64,000 nucleotides of DNA from positions 1,368,195 through 1,432,194 of the forward strand of contig CP070837.1 of NCBI GenBank assembly GCA_020341815.1. The letters are read 5' to 3'. Positions within the stretch are counted from its first letter, which is position 1; the number at the start of each line of letters is the position of its first letter. This DNA is from Candidatus Omnitrophota bacterium (GTDB taxonomy: Bacteria; Omnitrophota; Gorgyraeia; JAFGHF01). Shown here in pieces: positions 1,418 through 17,372 of the stretch. The translations under genes and the position numbers were made by a program. Below the pieces are notes generated by a model. It was not told the DNA's origin and did not search any database. It saw nothing but the letters and a program-made list of their open reading frames with translations.

Positions 1418-1615
1418 ATGAAGAAATTTATTGAGTCGTACACTGTAGAAGAATTAGCTGAGGCAGTTAAGCTTCATCCTTATACTATCAGACGTCTTTG
1501 TCGAGAAGGCAAGATTCCTTGCTTTAAGTTTGGGGGGCAATGGCGATTTGATATCGGGGAAATAGAAGAATGGCGAAGAAATCAAAACAAATCACAGCTT
1601 GCGCCAAATCGATAA
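1418..1615 (+). CDS. excisionase-family helix-turn-helix DNA-binding protein
   Basis: 65 aa. The YTVEELAEAVKLHPYTIRRLCREGKIP-F-FGGQWRF pattern matches MerR-superfamily excisionase/HTH_17 domains. Confidence 0.55.
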   Translation: MKKFIESYTVEELAEAVKLHPYTIRRLCREGKIPCFKFGGQWRFDIGEIEEWRRNQNKSQLAPNR

Positions 1616-2286
1616 AAAATTGGCCTGAAGATGATAGGCCGAGAGAAAAGCTTTTTAAATCCGGCGAACATACTTTAAGTAATACTGAGCTTTTAGCTAT
1701 ACTTTTACGCAGCGGTGTAAAGGGGCAAAGCGCGATTGACTTATCCAGAAAGATACTCTCTAAGTTTAAGACTCTCCGCAATATGAGCCACACGGACATA
1801 AGAGACTGGAAAGAATTCAAAGGATTGGGGCAAGCTAAGATTGCTCAGATTAGAGCAGCTATGGAACTTGGTAGAAGATTTTCAACAGAGAACACGCAAC
1901 CCAAAGGAAAAGTTAAAAGTTCTAAGGACATTGCCGATTTATTTATGGGGCGCATGCGAGATCTTAAAAAAGAGGTATTTAAGATTTTGCTTCTTGATAA
2001 CCGAAATCAAATTATCGAGACTATTGAATTAGCAGAAGGAACAGTAAATCAGGCAAATCCCATAGTAAGGGAGATTATGTCAAAGGCATTGCAAAATTTT
2101 GCATCTGCTTTGGCTTGTGTCCATAATCATCCAACGGGGGATTGCACTCCTAGCAAAGAAGATAGAGAATTTACTAGAGGGTTATGCCAAGCGAGCAATA
2201 TTATGCAGATGAAGGTTGTCGACCACATTATCATTGGCGACAATACATATTTTAGTTTTGTCGACAGAGGTCAGTTGCCTATTTAA
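1570..2286 (+). CDS. radC: RadC-like JAB/MPN domain protein (UPF0758)
   Basis: Contains the ELLAILLRSG helix-hairpin-helix-like N-terminus and the JAMM motif HNHPTGD with downstream PS..D. Overlaps the HTH ORF by 46 nt in another frame. Confidence 0.75.
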   Translation: MAKKSKQITACAKSIKNWPEDDRPREKLFKSGEHTLSNTELLAILLRSGVKGQSAIDLSRKILSKFKTLRNMSHTDIRDWKEFKGLGQAKIAQIRAAMELGRRFSTENTQPKGKVKSSKDIADLFMGRMRDLKKEVFKILLLDNRNQIIETIELAEGTVNQANPIVREIMSKALQNFASALACVHNHPTGDCTPSKEDREFTRGLCQASNIMQMKVVDHIIIGDNTYFSFVDRGQLPI

Positions 2287-2298
2287 AGGTTAAAGAGT

Positions 2299-4989
2299 AT
2301 GTCAGAGAGAGATTGGAACGAATATATAACACGTAAGAAATATATCGATAAGCTTCTTATCGAGTCTCAATGGGGACCTGTAGTTCAATATGAAGAGAAT
2401 AAGCGATACAAGCATGCATCAATTGAAGAATACCCCACAGAGACAGGTCCAGCAGATTATGCGCTTTTCCATAATAAAAAGCCTTTTTCCATTGTAGAAG
2501 GCAAGAAAGTTATCGTTGGTGTACAAAATGTTTTACAACAAGCTCAGCGCTATTCCAGAGGCTTCAAAGATAGTCCTTTTGCCTTTCACGAGTTCAAAGT
2601 TCCATTCATATACTCTACCAATGGAAAAATAATCTGGTTTCAAGATTTGCGCCATCCTGTGAATAGGTCACGTGAAGTAAAGAGATTTCATACACCCGAT
2701 GCCTTAGAAGAATTTCTATCACGCAACGAAGATGCAGCAAAAACTTGGCTTAAAAATACACCCATAGACAATCCTTATTTGCGCAATTATCAGAAGGAAG
2801 CCATAGGTAGTATTGAGAGAGCAATCCTTGAGAGAAAACGGAATATGCTTATCGCGATGGCAACTGGTACAGGTAAAACATTTACCATTATAAATTTAAT
2901 TTATCGGCTCATGAAGTCAGGATATGGCAAGCGTATACTATTCCTTGTTGATAGGCGTGCCTTAGCCGCACAAGCAGTAACAGCACTGGCAAGTTTTGAG
3001 GCAGAGCCTGGACTTAAATTTGACAAGATATACGAAGTATATAGCCAGCGTTTTAGACGCGAAGATCTTGATGAAGACATGAAGTTTGACCCAAAAGTTC
3101 TGCCCACGGAATATCTTACTAACCCTCAAGCTAAGCACAGCTTTGTATATGTATCCACAATTCAAAGAATGCGTATAAACCTTTTTGGCAATGCTGGCAT
3201 GTTTGGTCGTGCTACAGGTGATATGGAAGAGGAGGAGGGTGCTGAGAAGCTAGATATACCTATTCATGCCTTTGATGTAATTATTGCCGATGAGTGCCAC
3301 AGGGGTTATACCGCGCAAGAGGAAAGTAAATGGCGTGAGGCTCTAATGCACTTTGATGGCATTAGAGTAGGTTTAACCGCGACACCAGCAGCCCATACAA
3401 CAGCATTTTTCAAAGAAGTGGTTTATCGCTATGATTATGAGCGAGCAGTAAAAGAGGGATTTCTTGTTGATTATGATGCCGTAGCCATAAATTCAGATAT
3501 TACTATAAACGGCGTTTTCCTTAAACAAGGTGAAGAAATAGGACTAAAAGATACATCAACCGGCCAGTTAGTATTTGATATTTTAGAAGATGAAAGAGAG
3601 CTTGAGCCAGCAACCAATGAGAGCGAATGGACTGCTCCCGATAGAAACAAAAAGATAGTAAAAGAAATTAAAAAATATCTGCTTGACCAAGAGGAACAGC
3701 TTGGTCATTTTCCAAAGACTTTAATTTTTGCTAATAATGATATTGAGCATATATCACACTGCGATCAACTGGTGAACATATTGAGAGACGAGTTCAACCG
3801 AGGTGATTCCTTTGTTCAAAAGATAACTGGAAGCTCGACAGTTGACAGGCCGCTACAAAGAATCCGAGAGTTTAGAAACAGGCAAAATCCCGGTATTGTT
3901 GTTACTGTAGATATGCTTTCAACAGGTGTGGATATTCCAAAGGTCGAGAATATTATCTTTTTACGGCCTGTAAAATCAAGAATACTTTTTGAGCAGATGA
4001 TGGGCCGCGGGACACGCCTTTGTGAAGAGATTAACAAAACCCATTTTACTGTTTTTGATTGTTTCCGGGGAACACTTTTAGAATATTTTAGAAAAACCAC
4101 AGCCATTACAGCCGAAGCTCCCATTAAGCCAACCAGGATTATCAAAGAAGTGGTGCAGGCAATTGCTGATAATCAGGATAGAGCTTATAACATAAGTGTA
4201 TTATCCAAGCGCCTTCAGCGCATATCCAAAAACATAACTCAAGAAAGCAGAAGTCAATTTAACTATATCTTAGGTGATGTTGATATTGCAGAATTTGCTA
4301 AGAACCTTGGGGAAAGACTTGATAAGGATTGGGCTGGCACGATGCGTGTTTTACAGAGCGAAGGCTTCTTTAGTATGTGCGACAATTATCAACGACCCTT
4401 AAAGAAGCAAATTGTAGCCGAAGGAGCCGAAGATATCGTTTCTTCTGAGATTGTCTTTCGTGCAACGGATGGAAACAAGCTAAGGCCAGAAGATTATCTT
4501 AAACTCTTTGAGAAATTTGTTCGGGAAAATCCAGAGCATATCCAAGCTTTAGAAATACTAATAAACAAACCAAAAGATTTCCATGTCAGAGAATTAAAAG
4601 AATTACGGCTAAAACTATCAACCAAACCCGATGATTTAGTAGATAAATTTAAAGAACAGAATCTAAGGCGGGCATATAATAAAGAATTAGCTGATATTGT
4701 TTCAATTATAAGGCACGCTGCAAAAGGAGAGGAGCTTATTACAGCAGAATCAAGGATTGACAGAGCATTGGCAAAGGTTAAGGCGAGCCATAACTTTAGT
4801 GAAGCGCAGGAAAAATGGCTTGGCTTGATACGCCGCCATTTAATAGCCAACCTTCTTATAGAGAGAGACGATATAGACTCTTTGCCTATTTTTACACGCG
4901 AAGGATTAAATTATCGAAAATTAAATAAGATATTTAACGGTGAATTGGATGAAATATTACAGGAAATTAACGAGGCGGTATTAATATGA
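2299..4989 (+). CDS. hsdR: Type I restriction enzyme R subunit (endonuclease/helicase)
   Basis: 896 aa. N-terminal PD-(D/E)xK-like region (PADYALF..EGKK). Helicase motif I MATGTGKT and motif II DECHRG. 3' end overlaps hsdM by 4 nt. Confidence 0.85.
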   Translation: MSERDWNEYITRKKYIDKLLIESQWGPVVQYEENKRYKHASIEEYPTETGPADYALFHNKKPFSIVEGKKVIVGVQNVLQQAQRYSRGFKDSPFAFHEFKVPFIYSTNGKIIWFQDLRHPVNRSREVKRFHTPDALEEFLSRNEDAAKTWLKNTPIDNPYLRNYQKEAIGSIERAILERKRNMLIAMATGTGKTFTIINLIYRLMKSGYGKRILFLVDRRALAAQAVTALASFEAEPGLKFDKIYEVYSQRFRREDLDEDMKFDPKVLPTEYLTNPQAKHSFVYVSTIQRMRINLFGNAGMFGRATGDMEEEEGAEKLDIPIHAFDVIIADECHRGYTAQEESKWREALMHFDGIRVGLTATPAAHTTAFFKEVVYRYDYERAVKEGFLVDYDAVAINSDITINGVFLKQGEEIGLKDTSTGQLVFDILEDERELEPATNESEWTAPDRNKKIVKEIKKYLLDQEEQLGHFPKTLIFANNDIEHISHCDQLVNILRDEFNRGDSFVQKITGSSTVDRPLQRIREFRNRQNPGIVVTVDMLSTGVDIPKVENIIFLRPVKSRILFEQMMGRGTRLCEEINKTHFTVFDCFRGTLLEYFRKTTAITAEAPIKPTRIIKEVVQAIADNQDRAYNISVLSKRLQRISKNITQESRSQFNYILGDVDIAEFAKNLGERLDKDWAGTMRVLQSEGFFSMCDNYQRPLKKQIVAEGAEDIVSSEIVFRATDGNKLRPEDYLKLFEKFVRENPEHIQALEILINKPKDFHVRELKELRLKLSTKPDDLVDKFKEQNLRRAYNKELADIVSIIRHAAKGEELITAESRIDRALAKVKASHNFSEAQEKWLGLIRRHLIANLLIERDDIDSLPIFTREGLNYRKLNKIFNGELDEILQEINEAVLI

Positions 4990-6392
4990 GCGATATTGTC
5001 CAAAAATTGTGGGGTTTTTGCCATACCTTAAGGCACGATGGCATTGATTATGGTGACTACATCGAACAACTTACTTATTTACTTTTTCTTAAAATGGCAG
5101 AGGAAAGAGGCGCTGATATACCTAAAGAATATTCTTGGCGCGTGCTTCGTGAAAAATCAGGAACAGAACTGACTGATTTTTATACCGATGTTTTAAGAGG
5201 ACTAGGAAAACAAAAGAATACTTTGGGTCAAATCTATGGGGGTGCTATTTCAAGATTCAGCAATCCTGTTAATCTTAAAAAACTTATAAATCTTATAGAT
5301 GAAACAGAGTGGACCTCTTTGAATGTTGATGTAAAAGCCGCTGCATATGAGGGCCTTTTAGAGAAAAGCGCATCAGAGGGCAAAAAGGGAGCGGGTCAAT
5401 ATTTTACCCCAAGAATTTTAATCCAGTCTATCGTTCGTTGTATGAAACCCGATCCGCGCAAGATAAAAGACTTTACTATACATGACCCCGCGGCAGGCAC
5501 AGGCGGTTTCTTGGTCTGCGCTTATGAATGGCTTATTGAGCATACCAAGGGTGGCTTTGAGAGAGAAGATGCAAAACGGATTATGACAAAAACCTATTCT
5601 GGAACTGAGCTCGTTGCTCGGCCTCGCCGCCTTGCTCTTATGAACTTATATCTACATGGCATACATGGTGATATAGCTTTGGGCGATTCAATATACGAAC
5701 CTCCAAAAAGCACAAGATACTCATGCATACTTACTAATCCTCCCTTTGGCACAAAAGGTGCAAACCAAGCACCGACAAGAGATGATTTTACAGTTTCTAC
5801 CTCAAACAAACAGCTTAATTTTATCCAACATGTAGTAAATATTCTGAAGCCCGGCGGTCGCGCAGCAATGGTCCTACCTGATAACTGTCTTTTTGAAGAT
5901 AAAGCGGGGGAAGTTATCAAAAACTTAATGGAAGATTGTAATCTTCATACTGTATTACGTTTACCAAGAGGAACTTTTACACCATATAGTCAAGGTGTAA
6001 AAGCGAATGTGATATTTTTCCAGAAAGGTATGGCAACAGAAAATGTGTGGATATTTGATGCACGTTCAAATATTCCTTCGGTTACCAAGAAAGACCGCCC
6101 TTTATCTGCCACGCACTTTAAAGAATTCGAGAATTGCTACGGTAAAAATCCCGATGCTAGAGCTAAACGTGAAGATTTAGGGAAATCAGGCCGTTTTCGT
6201 TCTTTTCACATCGAACAAATAAAAGAACGCGGGTATAAACTTGATATTACATGGCTAAAGGATGAATCTCTGGATGATCCTGAAGATTTACCCGAACCGC
6301 AGGATTTGGCATCCGATGCTATTACTGAACTTGAAACGGTCGTGGATAACCTCAAAGAAATCGTAGCGGAGTTAGAGAATAATGGAGAATAA
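4986..6392 (+). CDS. hsdM: Type I restriction-modification N6-adenine DNA methyltransferase subunit
   Basis: AdoMet motif DPAAGTGGFL and catalytic NPPFG motif (ILTNPPFGTKG). HsdM N-terminal domain. Confidence 0.9.
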   Translation: MSDIVQKLWGFCHTLRHDGIDYGDYIEQLTYLLFLKMAEERGADIPKEYSWRVLREKSGTELTDFYTDVLRGLGKQKNTLGQIYGGAISRFSNPVNLKKLINLIDETEWTSLNVDVKAAAYEGLLEKSASEGKKGAGQYFTPRILIQSIVRCMKPDPRKIKDFTIHDPAAGTGGFLVCAYEWLIEHTKGGFEREDAKRIMTKTYSGTELVARPRRLALMNLYLHGIHGDIALGDSIYEPPKSTRYSCILTNPPFGTKGANQAPTRDDFTVSTSNKQLNFIQHVVNILKPGGRAAMVLPDNCLFEDKAGEVIKNLMEDCNLHTVLRLPRGTFTPYSQGVKANVIFFQKGMATENVWIFDARSNIPSVTKKDRPLSATHFKEFENCYGKNPDARAKREDLGKSGRFRSFHIEQIKERGYKLDITWLKDESLDDPEDLPEPQDLASDAITELETVVDNLKEIVAELENNGE

Positions 6393-7677
6393 GTTAAAGC
6401 AAGGATGGGTTAATAAAAGAATTGAGGAAATTTGTCGAATTATCAAGGATAAAGGGGCATCTGGAGAGGTCCCTTATTTAGAAATTGGAAATATAGATAT
6501 ATCCAAAAAGACCTATATCTTTACAAACAAACCCTCAGTCAAAGGATGTAAATGTGCTAAAAAAAATGATATTTTAATATCGCGGGTAAGACCTACAAGA
6601 GGAGCAATTGTAATTGTGAATGAAGATGAGCTTGCTGTTTCGTCTGCCTTTACTATTTTGCGTAATAATAGAAATAGTTTAACAGATAAATATTTATGGT
6701 TTTATTTGGCATGGAACCATAATTTTCTTAATTATTTAGGTGATAATTGCACTGGTACGATGTATCCAACAGTAGGAGAGAAAACGATTATAAATTATTT
6801 GATACCGCTTGCGCCCTTGAATGGACAAAAGCGCATTGTTAATAAATTGGATATGCTGTTAGCAAAACTCAAAGAGTGCCGGATTCGCCTTGAAAAAATC
6901 CCATTGTCCATAAAACGCTTTCGTCAATCAGTCCTAGCAGCAACTTACTCTGGCCGTCTTACTGCTGAGTGGCGAACGAATAAGCCCAGTACACCTACAG
7001 TTCTTGGTGGTAAGCAGAATGCAGTTCCAGTTAAAGACCTTATAGATATACCAAACACATGGCGATGGATAAAATTGTCGAATGTAGGCGAAATGAGTCG
7101 TGGTAAATCGAGGCACCGTCCACGGAATGCTTCTTTTCTCTTTGGTGGACCGTATCCTTTTATTCAAACAGGAGACATTGCTCAATCGGGAGGACGCATT
7201 TTAAAACACAAGCAGACTTATAGTGAAGACGGACTTGCCCAGAGTCGGCTTTGGCCAGCACAAACTGTATGTATAACAATTGCAGCCAATATTGCAGAAT
7301 CAGCAGTTTTGACCTATCCCGCATGTTTTCCTGATAGCGTTGTAGGTATTATTACTGATCGCTCTAAATGTTTACCAGAATACCTCGAGTATTTTATTAG
7401 AATAACTAAATCTGATCTCGCAACTTTCGCTCCTGCGACTGCTCAAAAGAATATAAATATAAAGATTTTAAGCGATGTCTATGTCCCTTTACCTCCGGTA
7501 GAGGAGCAAAAAGAGATTATTAATCGGGTTCAGTGTATGTTTAAAATAGCAGACCGAATCCTTACTCGTTATGCGAAGGCTAAAAGCCATATTGGTAACC
7601 TGTCCCAATCAATTCTCGCCAAAGCTTTCAGAGGCGAATTGGTTGAGCAGGATCCAAATGATGAGCCAGCAAATTAA
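6382..7677 (+). CDS. hsdS: Type I restriction-modification specificity subunit
   Basis: Two target-recognition-domain halves separated by a conserved central helix (LDMLLAKLKE) and a C-terminal conserved helix (SILAKAFRGELV). Overlaps hsdM by 11 nt. Confidence 0.8.
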   Translation: MENKLKQGWVNKRIEEICRIIKDKGASGEVPYLEIGNIDISKKTYIFTNKPSVKGCKCAKKNDILISRVRPTRGAIVIVNEDELAVSSAFTILRNNRNSLTDKYLWFYLAWNHNFLNYLGDNCTGTMYPTVGEKTIINYLIPLAPLNGQKRIVNKLDMLLAKLKECRIRLEKIPLSIKRFRQSVLAATYSGRLTAEWRTNKPSTPTVLGGKQNAVPVKDLIDIPNTWRWIKLSNVGEMSRGKSRHRPRNASFLFGGPYPFIQTGDIAQSGGRILKHKQTYSEDGLAQSRLWPAQTVCITIAANIAESAVLTYPACFPDSVVGIITDRSKCLPEYLEYFIRITKSDLATFAPATAQKNINIKILSDVYVPLPPVEEQKEIINRVQCMFKIADRILTRYAKAKSHIGNLSQSILAKAFRGELVEQDPNDEPAN

Positions 7678-7761
7678 TCCCGGGGACAGCTCACTTAATT
7701 CTCGATAGATTAGTTGTTTCAGGAATATACCCTACTTACACCTACACCGCGTAGGTGTAAG
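7676..7761 (+). repeat. family-A intergenic repeat copy 1 (AATCCCGGGGACAGCTCACTTAATTCTCGATAGATTAGTTGTTTCAGG) plus an 11-bp-stem hairpin (CTTACACCTAC / GTAGGTGTAAG) at 7735..7761
   Basis: Starts inside the hsdS stop codon. The same about 48-nt core recurs at 11213, 12571/12656, 15402 and 17343. The hairpin is followed by T-runs, so it is probably the terminator of the RM operon. Confidence 0.6.
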
Positions 7762-7883
7762 TAAAACACTTAATTTTCGACTTTTCGGATAAATAAGTAT
7801 TGTGTCCCTAGATTTTTGGAGTTATTGTGGGTGGGGAGTGGAGATGGTAGGTTAAATATACGTACTAGGCCTCAAAATTTATC

Positions 7884-7912
7884 TTGAGATTGTTTGTTTT
7901 TAGAGGTATAAT
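7884..7912 (+). promoter_or_regulatory. sigma70-like promoter TTGAGA-N17-TATAAT with no ORF behind it
   Basis: Near-identical sequence (TTGAGn-N17-...TTTTAGAGGTATAAT) recurs at 14711..14739 in front of a real gene. Here it is followed by a structured non-coding region of about 140 nt and then the tRNA-like element. Confidence 0.35.
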
Positions 7913-8059
7913 GAGAGAGGCACTTTTCGGTTTAAAAAGGGGTATTTCTTTTGGTGCGTGAAGTGTTGCACCTATTTAGTTTTGCCCGCCAAGGGACCAG
8001 TAAAGTAGGTCCTTTATATATATCCTTCTCCATGAGGAAAATATGTGGGGTGGGATCAT

Positions 8060-8132
8060 GGGCGTGTAGCTCAAGTGGATAGAGCGGCGTCCTGCTAAGA
8101 CGCTAGTTGGGGGTTCGAATCCCCCCACGAAA
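8060..8132 (+). tRNA. tRNA-like element or tRNA pseudogene: class I cloverleaf with GCU (Ser-type) anticodon loop, acceptor stem only 4 of 7 bp
   Basis: D-arm TAGCTCAAGTGGATAGAGC, anticodon stem-loop GCGTC-CUGCUAA-GACGC and T-arm GGGGGTTCGAATCCCCC are all canonical. The 5' acceptor GGGCGTG faces 3' CACGAAA, so positions 1-3 are unpaired. There is a 5-nt variable loop even though the anticodon is Ser-like. Confidence 0.4.
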
Positions 8133-8318
8133 TTAATACCCTTGTAGGGGTATATAAAATAGATGAGATAAATGATAAAGATATGATAGCAGTTTCTACT
8201 TTGAAAATAGGACACTTTCCCGAACAATTTGAGAAATGGTATATATCTTTAAAATTTGTCTAAGGATAACAAGAAAGTTAACATTCTCAGTAAATGGTGA
8301 TATTGTGGAGGCAAATAT

Positions 8319-8963
8319 ATGGAAAAACATAAGGATTTTTGGAACTTGATATTAGTTGGAAAATGGAATAAATATATTCTTTCTCCACAATGGGCAGCAA
8401 AAAATATTTTTGAAGAGCCAGAATTGCAAGTCGAATTTCCTTTGAATTTAGACTTTCCTCTAAGATATACCTCTTTAGAAAAAAATATAAGACTGCTTCC
8501 CGCAGAAGACAAAGTAATTTTTGTCCCATTGAAGCTAGATGATGAATGTCTTTCAGAAGTTGGAAAGCTCACAAATAAATTGTTCGAAATGTTACCACAT
8601 ACTCCGATGAGGGCATTTGGTATAAATTTTGGGTTTTCTGAAAAAGACAACACAGAGTTATACAAAGTGTTTAATGTAATAGACAATGCTAAGTTGGGAG
8701 AATTTAACTGCGAACTCAAGCAAACATGTATTATAAGGCGTACTGTTTATGATGAAAATAATTTAAATTTAAGATTAACATTAAAAGGTAATGAGGTATT
8801 ATTTGATTTTAATTTTCACTATGATGTAAAAAATGCTGTGGAAGCAAAAGAAAAATTAAAAGATAATATAGTCAAAAACAAAAATGCTGCAGAGAAACTC
8901 TTGCAGGAGGTATACGGTCTTAGCTACGATGATATAGAGCAAAAGAAAAGGGGGGTAGTATGA
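8319..8963 (+). CDS. hypothetical protein, first gene of an AT-rich four-gene operon
   Basis: Strong RBS GGAGG 9 nt upstream. About 30% GC. No recognisable motif. Stop overlaps the next start (ATGA). Confidence 0.55.
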   Translation: MEKHKDFWNLILVGKWNKYILSPQWAAKNIFEEPELQVEFPLNLDFPLRYTSLEKNIRLLPAEDKVIFVPLKLDDECLSEVGKLTNKLFEMLPHTPMRAFGINFGFSEKDNTELYKVFNVIDNAKLGEFNCELKQTCIIRRTVYDENNLNLRLTLKGNEVLFDFNFHYDVKNAVEAKEKLKDNIVKNKNAAEKLLQEVYGLSYDDIEQKKRGVV

Positions 8964-9262
8964 ATATGGTAGGAACTTCAAATCTATATCTATATTCAAG
9001 TTCTTTTCCAATTCAAGCAAGCATAGGGGATGTTGAAGAATATACAGTAAAATCTTTGACAGAAGAAAAAAAAGATATACAAACTAGTAATGATTTAAGT
9101 ATAACACGATTTGATGCTATAGAATTTCGGACTGCCTATTGGACAAAAGACACCCCGCTTAGTATTAATCTTGAACTTAATTTTGATAATATAGAAAAGC
9201 GCAGATTACTATATGATTTGAATACTGAAGAAAAAGATATAAATGCCACATTTCACATATAA
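8960..9262 (+). CDS. hypothetical small protein (100 aa)
   Basis: Translationally coupled to the flanking genes. AT-rich. No motif recognised. Confidence 0.45.
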   Translation: MNMVGTSNLYLYSSSFPIQASIGDVEEYTVKSLTEEKKDIQTSNDLSITRFDAIEFRTAYWTKDTPLSINLELNFDNIEKRRLLYDLNTEEKDINATFHI

Positions 9263-10121
9263 AAGACCTACCACACAATTATCCCAAGGTGACATACTCG
9301 CAAAGACAGAAGACATAAAAAGAGTTCTGGAAAAAGTCCACCCTCATTATCTCAAAGAAGATTACCTCTATTTTATTGTATTAACGCAATCCTGCGATTT
9401 AGTTCGTAGAAAAGGCGATCGTTGCATTGCTCAATACATTACACTGGCTGCTATTCGTCCTCTAGAGCTTTTAATTGCAAGACAAATAAGAAAATACCAA
9501 AAAGATATTATTGAAATAAAAGGAAAATTTGTTGCCCGTTCAAAACAAAACCTGTTAAATAATTTTATTACTCGGTTATTAAATAACAATGAACCAGACT
9601 ATTTTTATCTACACGAAGATGCAACTATGGGCTTTCCTGAATCTTGTGTAGCTTTTTTGAGATTGTCAATCGCACTTAAAGCAAGCCTACATTATGAAAA
9701 TTGTCTAAAAGCCAAAAAGCTGGAGCTCGATGATAATTTTAAGGCCAAACTGGGATGGCTTGTTGGAAATATATATTCGAGGGTAGGTACTGATGATTGG
9801 GTTCCGGACTACAGGGATGAAGGTCAATTTAATAAAATGATACAAGAGATTTTAAATGCAAACTGCCTTTGGATAGATAATATAAAAGAATTTTTGAGAC
9901 AGGTTCGTTCAAAATATACTTCTGAGCAAATTGAAAGAATGAGAGAAACGGAATTGCAAAAATTGGTACAGACTATTAGAATCCCTACTAAAAAAGAACA
10001 GATTTTAAATCGATTACAAGAGTTGCTACACCAAGATACAACTATAACAGACAAGAGTGTTGTTGGTAAAGTTATTAAAAGGATCAAAAACGACACAACG
10101 ATATCTGGCTTGTTAAAATAA
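9243..10121 (+). CDS. hypothetical protein (292 aa)
   Basis: Overlaps the upstream gene by 20 nt. Has a conserved-looking LSQGDIL...YFIVLTQSCDL segment. No family assigned. Confidence 0.5.
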   Translation: MPHFTYKRPTTQLSQGDILAKTEDIKRVLEKVHPHYLKEDYLYFIVLTQSCDLVRRKGDRCIAQYITLAAIRPLELLIARQIRKYQKDIIEIKGKFVARSKQNLLNNFITRLLNNNEPDYFYLHEDATMGFPESCVAFLRLSIALKASLHYENCLKAKKLELDDNFKAKLGWLVGNIYSRVGTDDWVPDYRDEGQFNKMIQEILNANCLWIDNIKEFLRQVRSKYTSEQIERMRETELQKLVQTIRIPTKKEQILNRLQELLHQDTTITDKSVVGKVIKRIKNDTTISGLLK

Positions 10122-10183
10122 GCATTCTAACTAATTTATATAAAAATAAAAGCTAAAAAACTTTGAGAAATGGAGATAGCACT

Positions 10184-11161
10184 ATGTCATTAGCAATAAA
10201 TACAACAACGCCAGAAGGAATTGTTTTAGCAACTGATAGTAGACAATCTTATCGTAATCGTAAAGGAATGGCCCGAATAGGAAGTGATAATGCTTCTAAG
10301 CTTTTTCAGCTAAACAAAAGAGTTGGAGTTGCCGTAACTGGGTTAGCATTTTTGCCTGAAAATGGAGTACCTAAAAATATAAGTAAGTTTATTGAAGAAT
10401 TTAAACGGGAAACTGAAGTAGAAAAATTAGATGTCAAAGATATAGCTGAAAAATTACATTTTCTTTTTAACGAAAAATATAGATGGGAAGAACAATTAGA
10501 TAAAATACCAGAAAAGATTAAGGGTGATCTTCAAAAACAAGGCTGCGAAGTCCTAGAAATTAAAAAAGAACAATATAGAGTTAAATTCCGTTTCAAAGAT
10601 CCTCAAGGTAATGTAAAAGATGGTGTAGGTGGAGTAGATATGATAATTCTTTTAGTTGCAGGATATAATAAAAATGGTTCTCACGAGGTCCATATTTGTT
10701 ATATTCCAGGAGAAATTCAAAAGAAAAGAGATAGCAGAGAAAGAGGCAAAGAATATGGTGCTTCTTGGATTGGGCAAAGCGATGTAGTGATACGGATTAT
10801 TTTGGGTTGTGATAGTAGGGTAAGAAATATTAAGTTTGTTAATGAAGCAATTCAAAAATATAATATAGAAGAGATAAATAAACAACTAAGAAACTTACAA
10901 TATAACATTCAATGGGGCACAATGGCTCTTCAGGATGCTGTTGATTTCTGTGTTCTGATGATTCAGACTACTTCAGCTATTCAACGGTTCTCGGATGGCA
11001 TTCTAGCCGACCTTGGAGCCATGCCAGGTGTTGGTGGTTCTGTTGATGTTGCAGTAATAACACCTGATAAAGGATTTGTTTGGCTAAGTAAAAAGACGTT
11101 AAAAGCTGGAAAGGCTGAGATAGATTTAGATAAAGAATCCTATTCAGATAAGCTAGAATAG
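10184..11161 (+). CDS. proteasome beta-subunit / HslV-like Ntn-hydrolase domain protein with a C-terminal extension of unknown function
   Basis: The N-terminus reads ...AIN-TTTPEGIVLATDSRQSY...ASKLFQLNKRVGVAVTGLA. This matches the proteasome beta/HslV signature: N-terminal Thr nucleophile after a short propeptide, then (V)(L)A(A/T)DSR, then the ...GVA.(T/S)G strand. RBS GGAGAT lies before the ATG at 10184; the ORF track starts at 10163. Confidence 0.5.
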   Translation: MSLAINTTTPEGIVLATDSRQSYRNRKGMARIGSDNASKLFQLNKRVGVAVTGLAFLPENGVPKNISKFIEEFKRETEVEKLDVKDIAEKLHFLFNEKYRWEEQLDKIPEKIKGDLQKQGCEVLEIKKEQYRVKFRFKDPQGNVKDGVGGVDMIILLVAGYNKNGSHEVHICYIPGEIQKKRDSRERGKEYGASWIGQSDVVIRIILGCDSRVRNIKFVNEAIQKYNIEEINKQLRNLQYNIQWGTMALQDAVDFCVLMIQTTSAIQRFSDGILADLGAMPGVGGSVDVAVITPDKGFVWLSKKTLKAGKAEIDLDKESYSDKLE

Positions 11162-11191
11162 TTGTTTTAATAGAACTTCCAACTTTCCACC

Positions 11192-11310
11192 CAATCCCTA
11201 AGAATCCCTAAGAATTCCGGGCATAATTCGCGGGAATTCCAGGGACAGCTCACTTAATTCCCGATAGATTAGTTGTTTCAGGGATTATGCTTTACTTACA
11301 CCTACGAGGT
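11192..11310 (+). repeat. family-A intergenic repeat copy 2, with a CCCTAAGAAT tandem duplication and AATTCCnGGG direct sub-repeats
   Basis: AATTCCGGGCATAATTCGCGGGAATTCCAGGGACAGCTCACTTAATTCCCGATAGATTAGTTGTTTCAGGGATTATGCTTTACTTACACCTAC. It is colinear with copy 1 through the CTTACACCTAC half-site. Confidence 0.6.
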
Positions 11311-11333: not shown

Positions 11334-12593
11334 ATGTTACAATCACCACAGCAGACGAACATTTCATTTGACGGTCTGGGCATCGCTCCCAGGATACTTG
11401 AAATATTGGACCGGATGCGGTTTACTCATCCTACGACCATTCAACACAAGGCTATTCCTATCGGAATAGAAGGAAAGGATGTTATCGGTATCGCTCAGAC
11501 CGGAACCGGTAAAACGCTTGCTTTTGCTATCCCCATTATCCAGCGCCTTTCCCAGAGAAAAAAAGGACGCGCTTTAATTCTTGCGCCTACCAGGGAGCTT
11601 GCTGTCCAGATTAACGAGACGTTTGAAAAAATAGCCCCGTCATTCGGCATAAAGACGGTTGTTATTATAGGGGGAGCGTCTATGCATATGCAGCTGGCGG
11701 CATTGAGAAAGAACCCCCGCGTTATAATAGCGACACCCGGACGGCTTGTCGATCACATAGGCCGGCGCACAGTCTTTTTAGCGGACACAAATGTTTTAGT
11801 GCTTGATGAGGCCGATCGTATGTTTGACATGGGGTTTATGCCGCAGATAGAACGCATCCTCAAGGTTGTTCCGAAAAATAAACAGACGATGCTCTTTTCG
11901 GCGACAATCTCCGGGGAAGTTGTGAAAATAGCAGCCGCCTATATGAAGCTTCCTGTTCATGTCGAAGTCGCGCCATCCGGAACTGCCGCCGAAGGCGTAA
12001 TTCAGGAATTATTTATTGTTAAAAAGAACGCAAAGAAACGGCTCTTATTGAAATTGCTCCAGGGGTATCACGGAGCGGTGCTTGTCTTTTCCCGGACGAA
12101 GATGGGCGCTGGAAGGATTGCCAGATTTATCAGAGAGGCAGGCCATAGTGCCGCTGAGATACATTCCAATCGCTCGCTTAACCAGCGCAAACAAGCGCTT
12201 GAGGGTTTTAAGTCCGGCAGATATAGAGTGCTTGTTGCTACCGATATAGCGGCCAGGGGTATAGATGTTATCGGTATAGAGCTTGTTCTTAACTATGATA
12301 TCCCCGATGATACAGAAAATTACGTGCATCGCATCGGGCGCACAGGACGCGCCGGCCACAAAGGGCGGGCCATCTCTTTCGCCACGCCTGAGCAAGGCGG
12401 CGATGTCCGCAATATAGAAAGACTTATCAAAACCGCTTTGCCTATAGCCGAGCACCCCGAGTTTCCCCGGGAAAGATTTACTCAGCATTCTTCAAAGGGC
12501 TCGCAGTCTCGTCAGTTTCACGGCAGGAGAAGACATAAGCAAAGAAGACGAAAGAGGCCCCGTCGCTCCGAATCCCGGGGACACAACACTTAA
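11334..12593 (+). CDS. DEAD-box ATP-dependent RNA helicase (RhlE/DeaD-like)
   Basis: Q-motif region followed by motifs AQTGTGKT, PTRELA, DEAD (VLDEADRM), SAT and HRIGRTGRAG, plus a basic C-terminal tail. RBS AGGAGG lies before the ATG at 11334. The stop sits inside family-A repeat copy 3. Confidence 0.85.
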   Translation: MLQSPQQTNISFDGLGIAPRILEILDRMRFTHPTTIQHKAIPIGIEGKDVIGIAQTGTGKTLAFAIPIIQRLSQRKKGRALILAPTRELAVQINETFEKIAPSFGIKTVVIIGGASMHMQLAALRKNPRVIIATPGRLVDHIGRRTVFLADTNVLVLDEADRMFDMGFMPQIERILKVVPKNKQTMLFSATISGEVVKIAAAYMKLPVHVEVAPSGTAAEGVIQELFIVKKNAKKRLLLKLLQGYHGAVLVFSRTKMGAGRIARFIREAGHSAAEIHSNRSLNQRKQALEGFKSGRYRVLVATDIAARGIDVIGIELVLNYDIPDDTENYVHRIGRTGRAGHKGRAISFATPEQGGDVRNIERLIKTALPIAEHPEFPRERFTQHSSKGSQSRQFHGRRRHKQRRRKRPRRSESRGHNT

Positions 12594-12683
12594 TTCCCGA
12601 TTTCATACATAAAAGGGCCATTATTTGCCAAAGCTAAGATACGAAGTAGATCCGCATAATAGATTAGTTGTTTCAGGAACCGA
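12571..12683 (+). repeat. family-A repeat copy 3, split into two parts (12571..12601 and 12656..12683) by a 54-nt insertion
   Basis: The left part overlaps the helicase stop. The right part (ATAATAGATTAGTTGTTTCAGGA) encodes residues HNRLVVSG of the next ORF. The insertion carries that ORF's TTG start. Confidence 0.55.
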
Positions 12684-17329: not shown

Positions 17330-17372
17330 TAAGGACGGGAAAAATTCCGGGGATAGCTTACTTAATTCCCGG
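17323..17372 (+). repeat. family-A repeat copy 5 (AATTCCGGGGATAGCTTACTTAATTCCCGG), preceded by the 16-mer AAAATAATAAGGACGG
   Basis: The 16-mer also occurs at 21610 and 23593 inside terminator hairpins. The repeat overlaps the stop of the 15788..17329 gene. Confidence 0.5.

Follow-up and report, generated by a model that had tools for sequence, protein, structure and literature searches.

What is the tRNA-shaped element at positions 8060..8132 (+) of the DNA analysed here, and how did it come to lack the tip of its acceptor stem? The 64-kb window, by which we mean the whole stretch analysed, belongs to contig CP070837.1 of a metagenome-assembled genome of Candidatus Omnitrophota bacterium (GCA_020341815.1), and the element in it combines an Arg(UCU)-type body with the anticodon GCU and with broken acceptor pairs 1-3/70-72. 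Its broken tip coincides with the left edge of an AT-rich acquired block (8130..11163, +). We consider it probable that the element is a non-functional remnant of a class I tRNA of the Arg(UCU) type, whose 3′ end was lost in a single rearrangement that fused it to this block. It is, as such, an ordinary tRNA relic at an island junction and one more example of a well-known kind of feature, as tRNA gene fragments and remnants that integrating elements leave behind are found pervasively in prokaryotes (PMC9897764, PMC4383910).

We looked at how well the letters of the element fit a tRNA. The tRNA family of Rfam (RF00005, gathering score 29) matched positions 8063-8129 (+) with 49.1 bits (E 1.8e-7 for the whole window), and this was the sole Rfam match at gathering score in the 64 kb; a search for other Rfam families across 7600-8400 gave nothing credible. 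The alignment of the element is local and stops at model positions 4-67 of 71, which leaves out the three outer acceptor pairs; for the genuine tRNAs of the comparison loci, the alignment spans model positions 1-71 and reaches 69-70 bits. A direct reading showed that each of the 18 inner pairs is an intact Watson-Crick pair, with four in the D stem, five each in the anticodon and T stems and four in the acceptor (4-7 with 66-69), while the three outer pairs, 1-72 to 3-70, are all broken, with GGG at positions 1-3 opposite AAA. The variable loop comprises 5 nt (UAGUU), the anticodon loop reads CUGCUAA, and the core bases U8, A14, G18-G19, A21, U33, G53-U54-U55-C56 and A58 are present, together with the A15-U48 pair. 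There is no encoded CCA, and AAATTAAT comes after G69. The tRNA shape of the element is far beyond chance. A preceding sequence-only reading of this DNA had described a tRNA cloverleaf at 8060-8132 with intact D, anticodon and T arms, a broken acceptor stem and no long variable arm, and the sequence agrees with it on each of these points. With ARAGORN, no tRNA was reported anywhere in the window at default thresholds, and the pseudogene threshold (-ps) yielded a forced, odd fold of 78 nt (8055-8132) with the anticodon GCT.

The Rfam score over threshold and the ARAGORN -ps fold are what could be cited for a tRNA that works despite an unusual acceptor stem, a reading that we nevertheless regard as hardly credible. 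Such a tRNA would have to tolerate G opposite A at three pairs in a row (1-72 to 3-70), it would have neither a CCA nor a plausible discriminator base, and no alternative 7-bp acceptor pairing of the element with its flanks was found. Moreover, bacterial seryl-tRNA synthetase requires a long variable arm, and a class I body with a GCU anticodon is no substrate for it. The energy calculation points in the same direction, as the cloverleaf with a 4-bp acceptor stem (-23.7 kcal/mol) is not the minimum-energy fold, but is outcompeted by a fold at -26.3 kcal/mol that pairs the free 5′ GGGC with a strand of the D stem. When CCC was restored at positions 70-72, the cloverleaf came close to the minimum (-34.1 versus -35.5 kcal/mol); without the three outer pairs, the cloverleaf is about 10 kcal/mol less stable and gives way to a non-cloverleaf fold as the minimum. 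A transcript, if made, would have just four acceptor pairs and lack the 3′ end, and could not be matured or aminoacylated as a tRNA. The element is thus probably inactive.

We then asked where the damage lies relative to the composition of the surrounding DNA. The GC (guanine-cytosine) content is 38.9% over 7746-8059 and 39.2% over the genes further upstream (1570-7677), which encode RadC and then the HsdR, HsdM and HsdS proteins of a type I restriction-modification (RM) system (hsdR, hsdM and hsdS, 2299-7677). It is 61.4% in the element itself (8060-8129), falls to 28.6% over 8130-8318, and amounts to 32.1% and 33.6% in the genes of the acquired block (A-B-C and D, respectively, see below) before it returns to 43.7% at 11164-11234; the block as a whole lies at 29-34%, versus 44% for the window. 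The GC drop coincides exactly with the point where pairing stops, 8129/8130, between the last paired acceptor base, G69, and the first unpaired base, and the left edge of the AT-rich block is this same breakpoint. Apart from G34, every defect of the element sits at this one point (69/70). Since 18 intact pairs stand next to three broken ones at a composition boundary, a single truncation or fusion event is implied rather than gradual decay. The element had previously been called a decayed tRNA at the border between the RM module and the AT-rich operon: the border is indeed there, as a composition break at the broken 3′ tip, but the decay is not, as the damage other than G34 is confined to one breakpoint. 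The element also shows, at single-base resolution, where on its left side a small acquired block begins in a Candidatus Omnitrophota genome.

According to this explanation, one rearrangement would have removed acceptor positions 70-72, the discriminator base and any CCA, and would have joined position 69 directly to 3 kb of horizontally acquired AT-rich DNA carrying A-B-C and D. The most likely route would be the insertion of a small island at or next to the 3′ end of a tRNA gene, as seen for A-B-C elsewhere, after which the junction either was never regenerated or was later deleted along with any integrase. An insertion or a deletion would have caused the truncation, and the tRNA gene may have been resident in the genome or may have arrived within a larger foreign segment. 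The 16 nt across the breakpoint (8125-8140, CCACGAAATTAATACC) match positions 7666-7681 (CCAGCAAATTAATCCC) at 13/16 bases, which may represent microhomology at a recombination junction or chance. The latter positions run from the last bases of hsdS into the left copy of a 70-nt repeat.

To which tRNA did the body belong? A scan of viral contigs for the exact D arm of the element, TAGCTCAANTGGATAGAGC, showed that 109 of the 117 ARAGORN-called viral tRNAs that carry it are tRNA-Arg, and 90 of these 109 are Arg(TCT), mostly with the anticodon loop CTTCTAA. Among 76 cellular tRNAs from the comparison loci, the GGAYA D loop is confined to Arg. The element carries a GGAUA D loop with A20, as well as C35, U36, A37 and A38, and the main identity elements for arginyl-tRNA synthetase are A20, C35 and U/G36. 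Position 34 is a G, a difference of one base (U34 -> G) from the Arg(UCU) loop. In summary, the body is a tRNA-Arg(UCU)-type scaffold that carries G34, and the GCU anticodon is best read as a change of U34 (or C34) to G on an Arg scaffold. The assignment to a serine type in the sequence-only reading therefore has to be given up on account of the D arm, and the same Arg-type D arm led us to reject an origin from a serine tRNA by deletion of the variable arm.

Two other resemblances concern single parts of the element. The anticodon arm (17 nt) is identical to that of one phage tRNA-Ser(GCU), the only match among 2.9 million contigs, and such an identity is within chance for a 5-bp stem. The tRNA-Ile(GAU) of a Saccharibacteria locus (L005) has the highest overall identity to the element and has in common with it the acceptor GGGCGTG...CACGCCC; an origin from Ile(GAU) through an A35 -> C change is less likely, as this tRNA-Ile does not have the GGAUA loop. 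A search of viral contigs for relatives of the T arm and acceptor gave two unrelated matches only. For annotation, the appropriate label is hence a tRNA-Arg-derived pseudogene or fragment and not a tRNA-Ser.

The AT-rich block downstream of the element contains a cassette of three genes, A-B-C, followed by a gene D. Gene A (8319..8963, +) encodes 214 amino acids without a known domain and is the conserved partner of gene C; no match to it was found in Pfam, PADLOC, NCBIfam or PHROGs. Gene B (8960..9262, +, 100 amino acids) is a small, poorly conserved open reading frame (ORF) between A and C. Gene C (9243..10121, +, 292 amino acids) has a weak MazF/CcdB-like fold in its N-terminal ~170 residues: its AlphaFold2 model has a predicted local distance difference test score (pLDDT) of 90.8, and Foldseek against the Protein Data Bank (PDB) gave MazF as the best match (E 4.4e-3, probability 1.0), with template modelling (TM) scores of 0.58-0.70 when normalised to the target length. 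None of its 1319 homologs carries a Pfam domain, and the three-gene module as a whole has no Pfam match; a comparison of the proteins A, B and C with PADLOC, NCBIfam and PHROGs gave nothing significant. Gene D (10184..11161, +, 325 amino acids) encodes a proteasome-beta-like hydrolase of the N-terminal nucleophile (Ntn) type with a weak match to Pfam Proteasome, and over a 24-residue stretch it matches one PHROGs family of unknown function (E 1.1e-7). Downstream of the block lies a gene for a DEAD-box RNA helicase (11334-12593).

We next compared the arrangement of these genes at other loci. A-(B)-C (L082-L162) recurs as a conserved module; it was examined at 80 metagenome loci, all of them without D, and gene A lies upstream of C in most of the 80, as found by tblastn. 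The closest relative of the cassette, L162, shows 70.6% DNA identity over 8331-9962, and a 93-amino-acid ORF takes the position of gene B there. In L162, a serine protease gene (PF01972, 897-1922) directly precedes A-B-C, and in the window the gene for a proteasome-like hydrolase directly follows it, so that the peptidase beside the cassette is not the same in the two. Gene D, in turn, stands alone, without A-B-C, in 80 of 80 genome loci (L002-L081), with 60-83% amino-acid identity, and its hosts include Saccharibacteria and other Patescibacteria, Atribacterota, Clostridia, Methanobacterium, Heimdallarchaeota and others. One further metagenome contig (L163) has 91.8% DNA identity over 10141-11163 and is unrelated outside, the similarity stopping exactly at the edges of the gene. 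The four ORFs of the block are two separate units, A-B-C and D, and on these sequence comparisons gene D appears to be an independently mobile, widely exchanged and remarkably conserved single-gene unit. In the Saccharibacteria locus L005 (4955-7083), gene D is found between tRNA-Ile(GAU) and tRNA-Ala(UGC), a pair that normally lies in the spacer of the rRNA operon. Both units are of wider use, the one as an uncharacterised three-gene cassette at tRNA genes with a weak MazF-like fold in one of its proteins, the other as a very widely exchanged proteasome-like single gene.

Whether A-B-C is found at tRNA genes in other genomes was examined in the 80 A-B-C loci. A tRNA lies within 500 bp of the module in 8 of the 80, and tRNAs are about 15-fold denser in the near flank (10 in 63 kb, 0.158 per kb) than in the far flank (2 in 200 kb, 0.010 per kb). 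Their isotypes vary (Thr, Phe, Lys, Leu, Ala). Beside gene D, no such enrichment of tRNAs was seen (0.082 versus 0.095 tRNA per kb). The layout of the window recurs in L084, L122 and L153: on the strand of gene A and 150-290 nt upstream of it, each has an intact tRNA, and in L122 and L153 a hairpin comes after this tRNA. At two loci, the module lies in an island bounded by a copy of part of a tRNA: in L083, a 27-nt copy of the 5′ part of tRNA-Thr bounds a 2.5-kb island holding only A-B-C, and in L131, a 44-nt copy of the 3′ half of tRNA-Ala, 100% identical, bounds an island of 5.2 kb, in which a search for an integrase domain detected none.

These islands would also fit a more specific possibility, namely that the element is the left attachment site (attL) of an integrative element that can still be defined, with the right site (attR) and the integrase outside the window. 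The block abuts the 3′ end of the element, as an attL would have it, and tRNA-fragment repeats bound A-B-C in L083 and L131. We nevertheless think this unlikely. With the junction at 69/70, the duplication would span ~7 nt at most, too little to be detected, no repeat of at least 10 nt of any part of the element is present in the window, and the GC content is back at the host level at 11164, 3 kb on, with no tRNA fragment there. The absence of an integrase domain from the scanned ORFs and of a regenerated tRNA, to which we come below, counts against it as well. The sequence-only reading had suggested, as one possibility, an attachment-site remnant, to be checked by a search for a partner copy. 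Of this proposal, the remnant at the border of an island holds, whereas the window gave no partner for any stretch of the element, and the ORFs of 81-20950 gave no integrase domain.

Several observations weigh against the explanation that we favour, that of a tRNA-Arg remnant truncated at the junction with the acquired block. No displaced fragment or copy of the element was found in the 64-kb window (up to 3 mismatches, and short-word BLAST), a scan of the ORFs between 81 and 20950 gave no integrase domain, and the tRNA was not regenerated, unlike in classical tRNA-targeted integration. The body is flawless except for G34, which fits a very recent inactivation and equally fits selection on the fold. 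Relatives whose helicase is 84-87% identical have no tRNA upstream of it, and synteny with them is poor. Finally, copies of a 70-nt direct repeat enclose the AT-rich block together with the element and 310 nt upstream of it: the left copy lies at 7676..7745 (+) and the right copy, ~92% identical, at 11235..11305 (+), just upstream of the DEAD-box helicase gene. As the repeats enclose the element, the whole 3.56-kb segment could be a mobile unit, with the element as internal cargo and not as target.

This last arrangement would suit another origin for the element, as the decaying tRNA gene of a foreign donor, for instance a phage, which travelled as cargo in the repeat-bounded 3.56-kb segment and whose 3′ break is unrelated to the insertion of A-B-C and D. 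Besides the enclosing repeats, the lack of a tRNA at the corresponding position in relatives speaks for it, as does the fact that tRNAs of the Arg(UCU) type are by far the commonest carriers of the D arm in viral contigs; moreover, variants at position 34 (R34) and unpaired acceptor tips occur within phage genomes. It is, in our judgement, an unlikely origin all the same, as the 310 nt upstream have 38.9% GC, like the RM genes (39.2%) and unlike the AT-rich block, as the repeat belongs to a local dispersed family (partial copies at 12571 and 17343) and need not mark an insertion, and as such an origin would not explain why pairing and GC content break at exactly the same position. The partial copies of the repeat (12571-12679 and 17343-17371) always lie just after genes, and weaker copies of the repeat motif (GGGGACAGCTCACTTAATTCCCGA ... 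TAGATTAGTTGTTTCAGG) were seen after three other nearby genes. The 70-nt repeat may thus be a local intergenic family, of a cassette-boundary kind or like repetitive extragenic palindromic (REP) sequences, rather than an insertion scar. An independent assembly from the same sample (L349) breaks directly after the left copy.

Exact-protein look-ups of the helicase and HsdS of the window returned only two contigs from this sample, L164 and L349, in which the arrangement is the same. At the orthologous locus, where an intact tRNA had been looked for, none was present in the relatives (L167-L171); the neighbourhoods of these differ and carry other inserted blocks, which makes the comparison weak. 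In L167 (2988-9368), the block upstream of the orthologous DEAD-box helicase contains AAA_23, patatin and unknown genes, and in L168 (8698-9971), it contains small ORFs and a helix-turn-helix (HTH) gene. The space upstream of the helicase in related Omnitrophota is a recurrent variable site for accessory genes.

We also considered whether the element might have a function of its own, in view of what surrounds it. The promoter previously proposed at 7884..7912 (+) is present as a consensus match, a sigma-70-like TTGAGA-17-TATAAT site matching 11/12 consensus positions, which by itself does not imply function. Between this promoter-like site and the element lie two hairpins, a terminator-like one at 7953..7982 (+), with its stem-loop at 7953-7972 and a T-rich tail, and a second one, AAGGGACC / GGTCCTTT, at 7991..8015 (+), both present in the fold of 7918-8059 (z-score -2.35); read-through into the element is therefore uncertain. 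A further hairpin, ATACCCTTGTAGGGGTAT, follows just 3′ of the element (8136..8153, +; fold of 8030-8160), with no T run after it, and weaker promoter-like sites for the operon were found downstream of the element. The region 7884-8015, with its near-consensus promoter, a terminator-like hairpin within ~40 nt and then the second hairpin, has no Rfam match; it may give a short RNA of its own or serve as a leader.

From these features, the element might be viewed as a functional acceptor-less Arg-type tRNA mimic with a GCU loop, which would be an undescribed class on mobile DNA. Its body is perfect, with all the tertiary-interaction bases and 18/18 inner pairs, and a promoter-like site and a structured leader upstream and a hairpin downstream would be in keeping with a small RNA. 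In a more specific form, the mimic would act, at the head of A-B-C or beside the RM system, as a decoy, an RNA antitoxin or a regulator, with the MazF-like protein C or an anticodon nuclease as its counterpart; enzymes of the MazF type cut RNA, and the model of gene C suggests a weak MazF/CcdB-like fold. If true, this would be a new kind of small RNA in defence or toxin cassettes. However, the element is missing from all the other A-B-C and D loci, of which 160 were searched with ARAGORN and BLAST and 20 with Rfam, and only ordinary tRNAs were found there; thus, the conserved co-occurrence of its RNA with the A-B-C genes that a system like type III toxin-antitoxin would have was not seen in the 80 A-B-C loci. 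The 570 nt of 7746-8318 have no nucleotide homolog in any fetched locus, and as the element is a singleton, covariation cannot be shown for it. In addition, the point of truncation is also the composition break, as a junction would give. We consider the general form of a mimic very unlikely, and its role as decoy, antitoxin or regulator equally improbable.

A parallel to such a mimic comes from phages. Viral contigs were searched with a pattern made of the Arg-type D arm and the loop CTGCTAA, and, as a control, with the loop CTACTAA. The first pattern gave ~24 class I tRNA-like sequences, some of them with intact acceptors, and among them a family of 13 phage contigs (L293, L295-L298, L300, L301, L305, L314, L315, L317, L318, L322; for example, L296 4640-4900) with an Arg-type core, a GCU loop and no acceptor stem, which Rfam scores at 47.8 bits over model positions 7-64; no match was obtained for this locus to Rfam families other than tRNA. 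Its layout comprises three upstream hairpins, the tRNA-like core and a strong terminator, and between its two main variants, identity reaches 90% in the core, but 80% and 68% in the flanks; the T stem shows one compensatory change. This acceptor-less core with its terminator and compensatory change is a point in favour of a mimic, and functional RNAs of such an acceptor-less Arg type may exist, but the search pattern required the D arm and the anticodon loop, which leaves only the missing acceptor as an independent likeness. Furthermore, the control loop (anticodon ACU) gave as many matches, several of them with unpaired tips opposite A-rich 3′ sequence. As the control is equally frequent, broken tips included, these sequences fit the ordinary decay of phage tRNA-Arg genes. 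The phage elements sit inside phage genomes and do not adjoin integrases.

Class I tRNAs with an Arg scaffold and the anticodon GCU or ACU were seen in about a dozen phage lineages each (L292-L348; for example, L299, L302, L308, L312, L316, L328 and L333), many with intact acceptor stems and some with an encoded CCA. Anticodons GCU and ACU would read the serine AGY codons, and by the usual identity rules these tRNAs would be charged with arginine.

How does the element, read as a truncated tRNA-Arg, compare with known systems? Genes for tRNA-Arg(UCU), of the argU type common in phage genomes, have the D arm TAGCUCAAGUGGAUAGAGC with A20 that is also found in the element, and the viral Arg(TCT) tRNAs resemble it closely in the variable loop and T arm and have the same C35, U36, A37 and A38. 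The element differs from them in having G34 instead of U34, which gives an anticodon that is neither UCU nor CCU and that reads AGY (Ser) codons, and in lacking the acceptor tip and the 3′ end. With the class II tRNA-Ser(GCU), it shares the loop CUGCUAA, but it has no long variable arm, and in place of a Ser-type D arm it has a 4-bp D stem and an Arg-type loop. Functional tRNA-like RNAs, namely the tRNA-like domain of YrlA (a bacterial Y-RNA-like RNA), mascRNA and the tRNA-Other of B. cereus, have a tRNA core that is not used in decoding. These are conserved families with defined partners, whereas the element has no homolog and no conserved partner.

The remaining comparison is with islands in tRNA genes (tDNA). 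Classical tDNA islands have a regenerated intact tRNA and a displaced partial copy, and usually a tyrosine integrase (PMC4383910, PMC9897764). The window departs from this in that its only copy is nearly complete (positions 1-69) and was not regenerated, and in that no fragment repeat at a far end (in the 64 kb) and no integrase (in the ORFs of 81-20950) were found. With the islands catalogued by Islander, on the other hand, it has several traits in common. Foreign DNA abuts the tRNA gene, as indicated by the GC break at 8129/8130 and by homology blocks common to unrelated genomes. The element and Islander-type remnants alike score as low-quality or pseudo tRNAs, and the cargo of such islands can be a small accessory cassette, like the cassette of the window, which sits at tRNA genes in other genomes. 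As in the islands of the Islander type, a tRNA-derived sequence stands at the edge of foreign DNA in the window (PMC4383910, PMC9897764).

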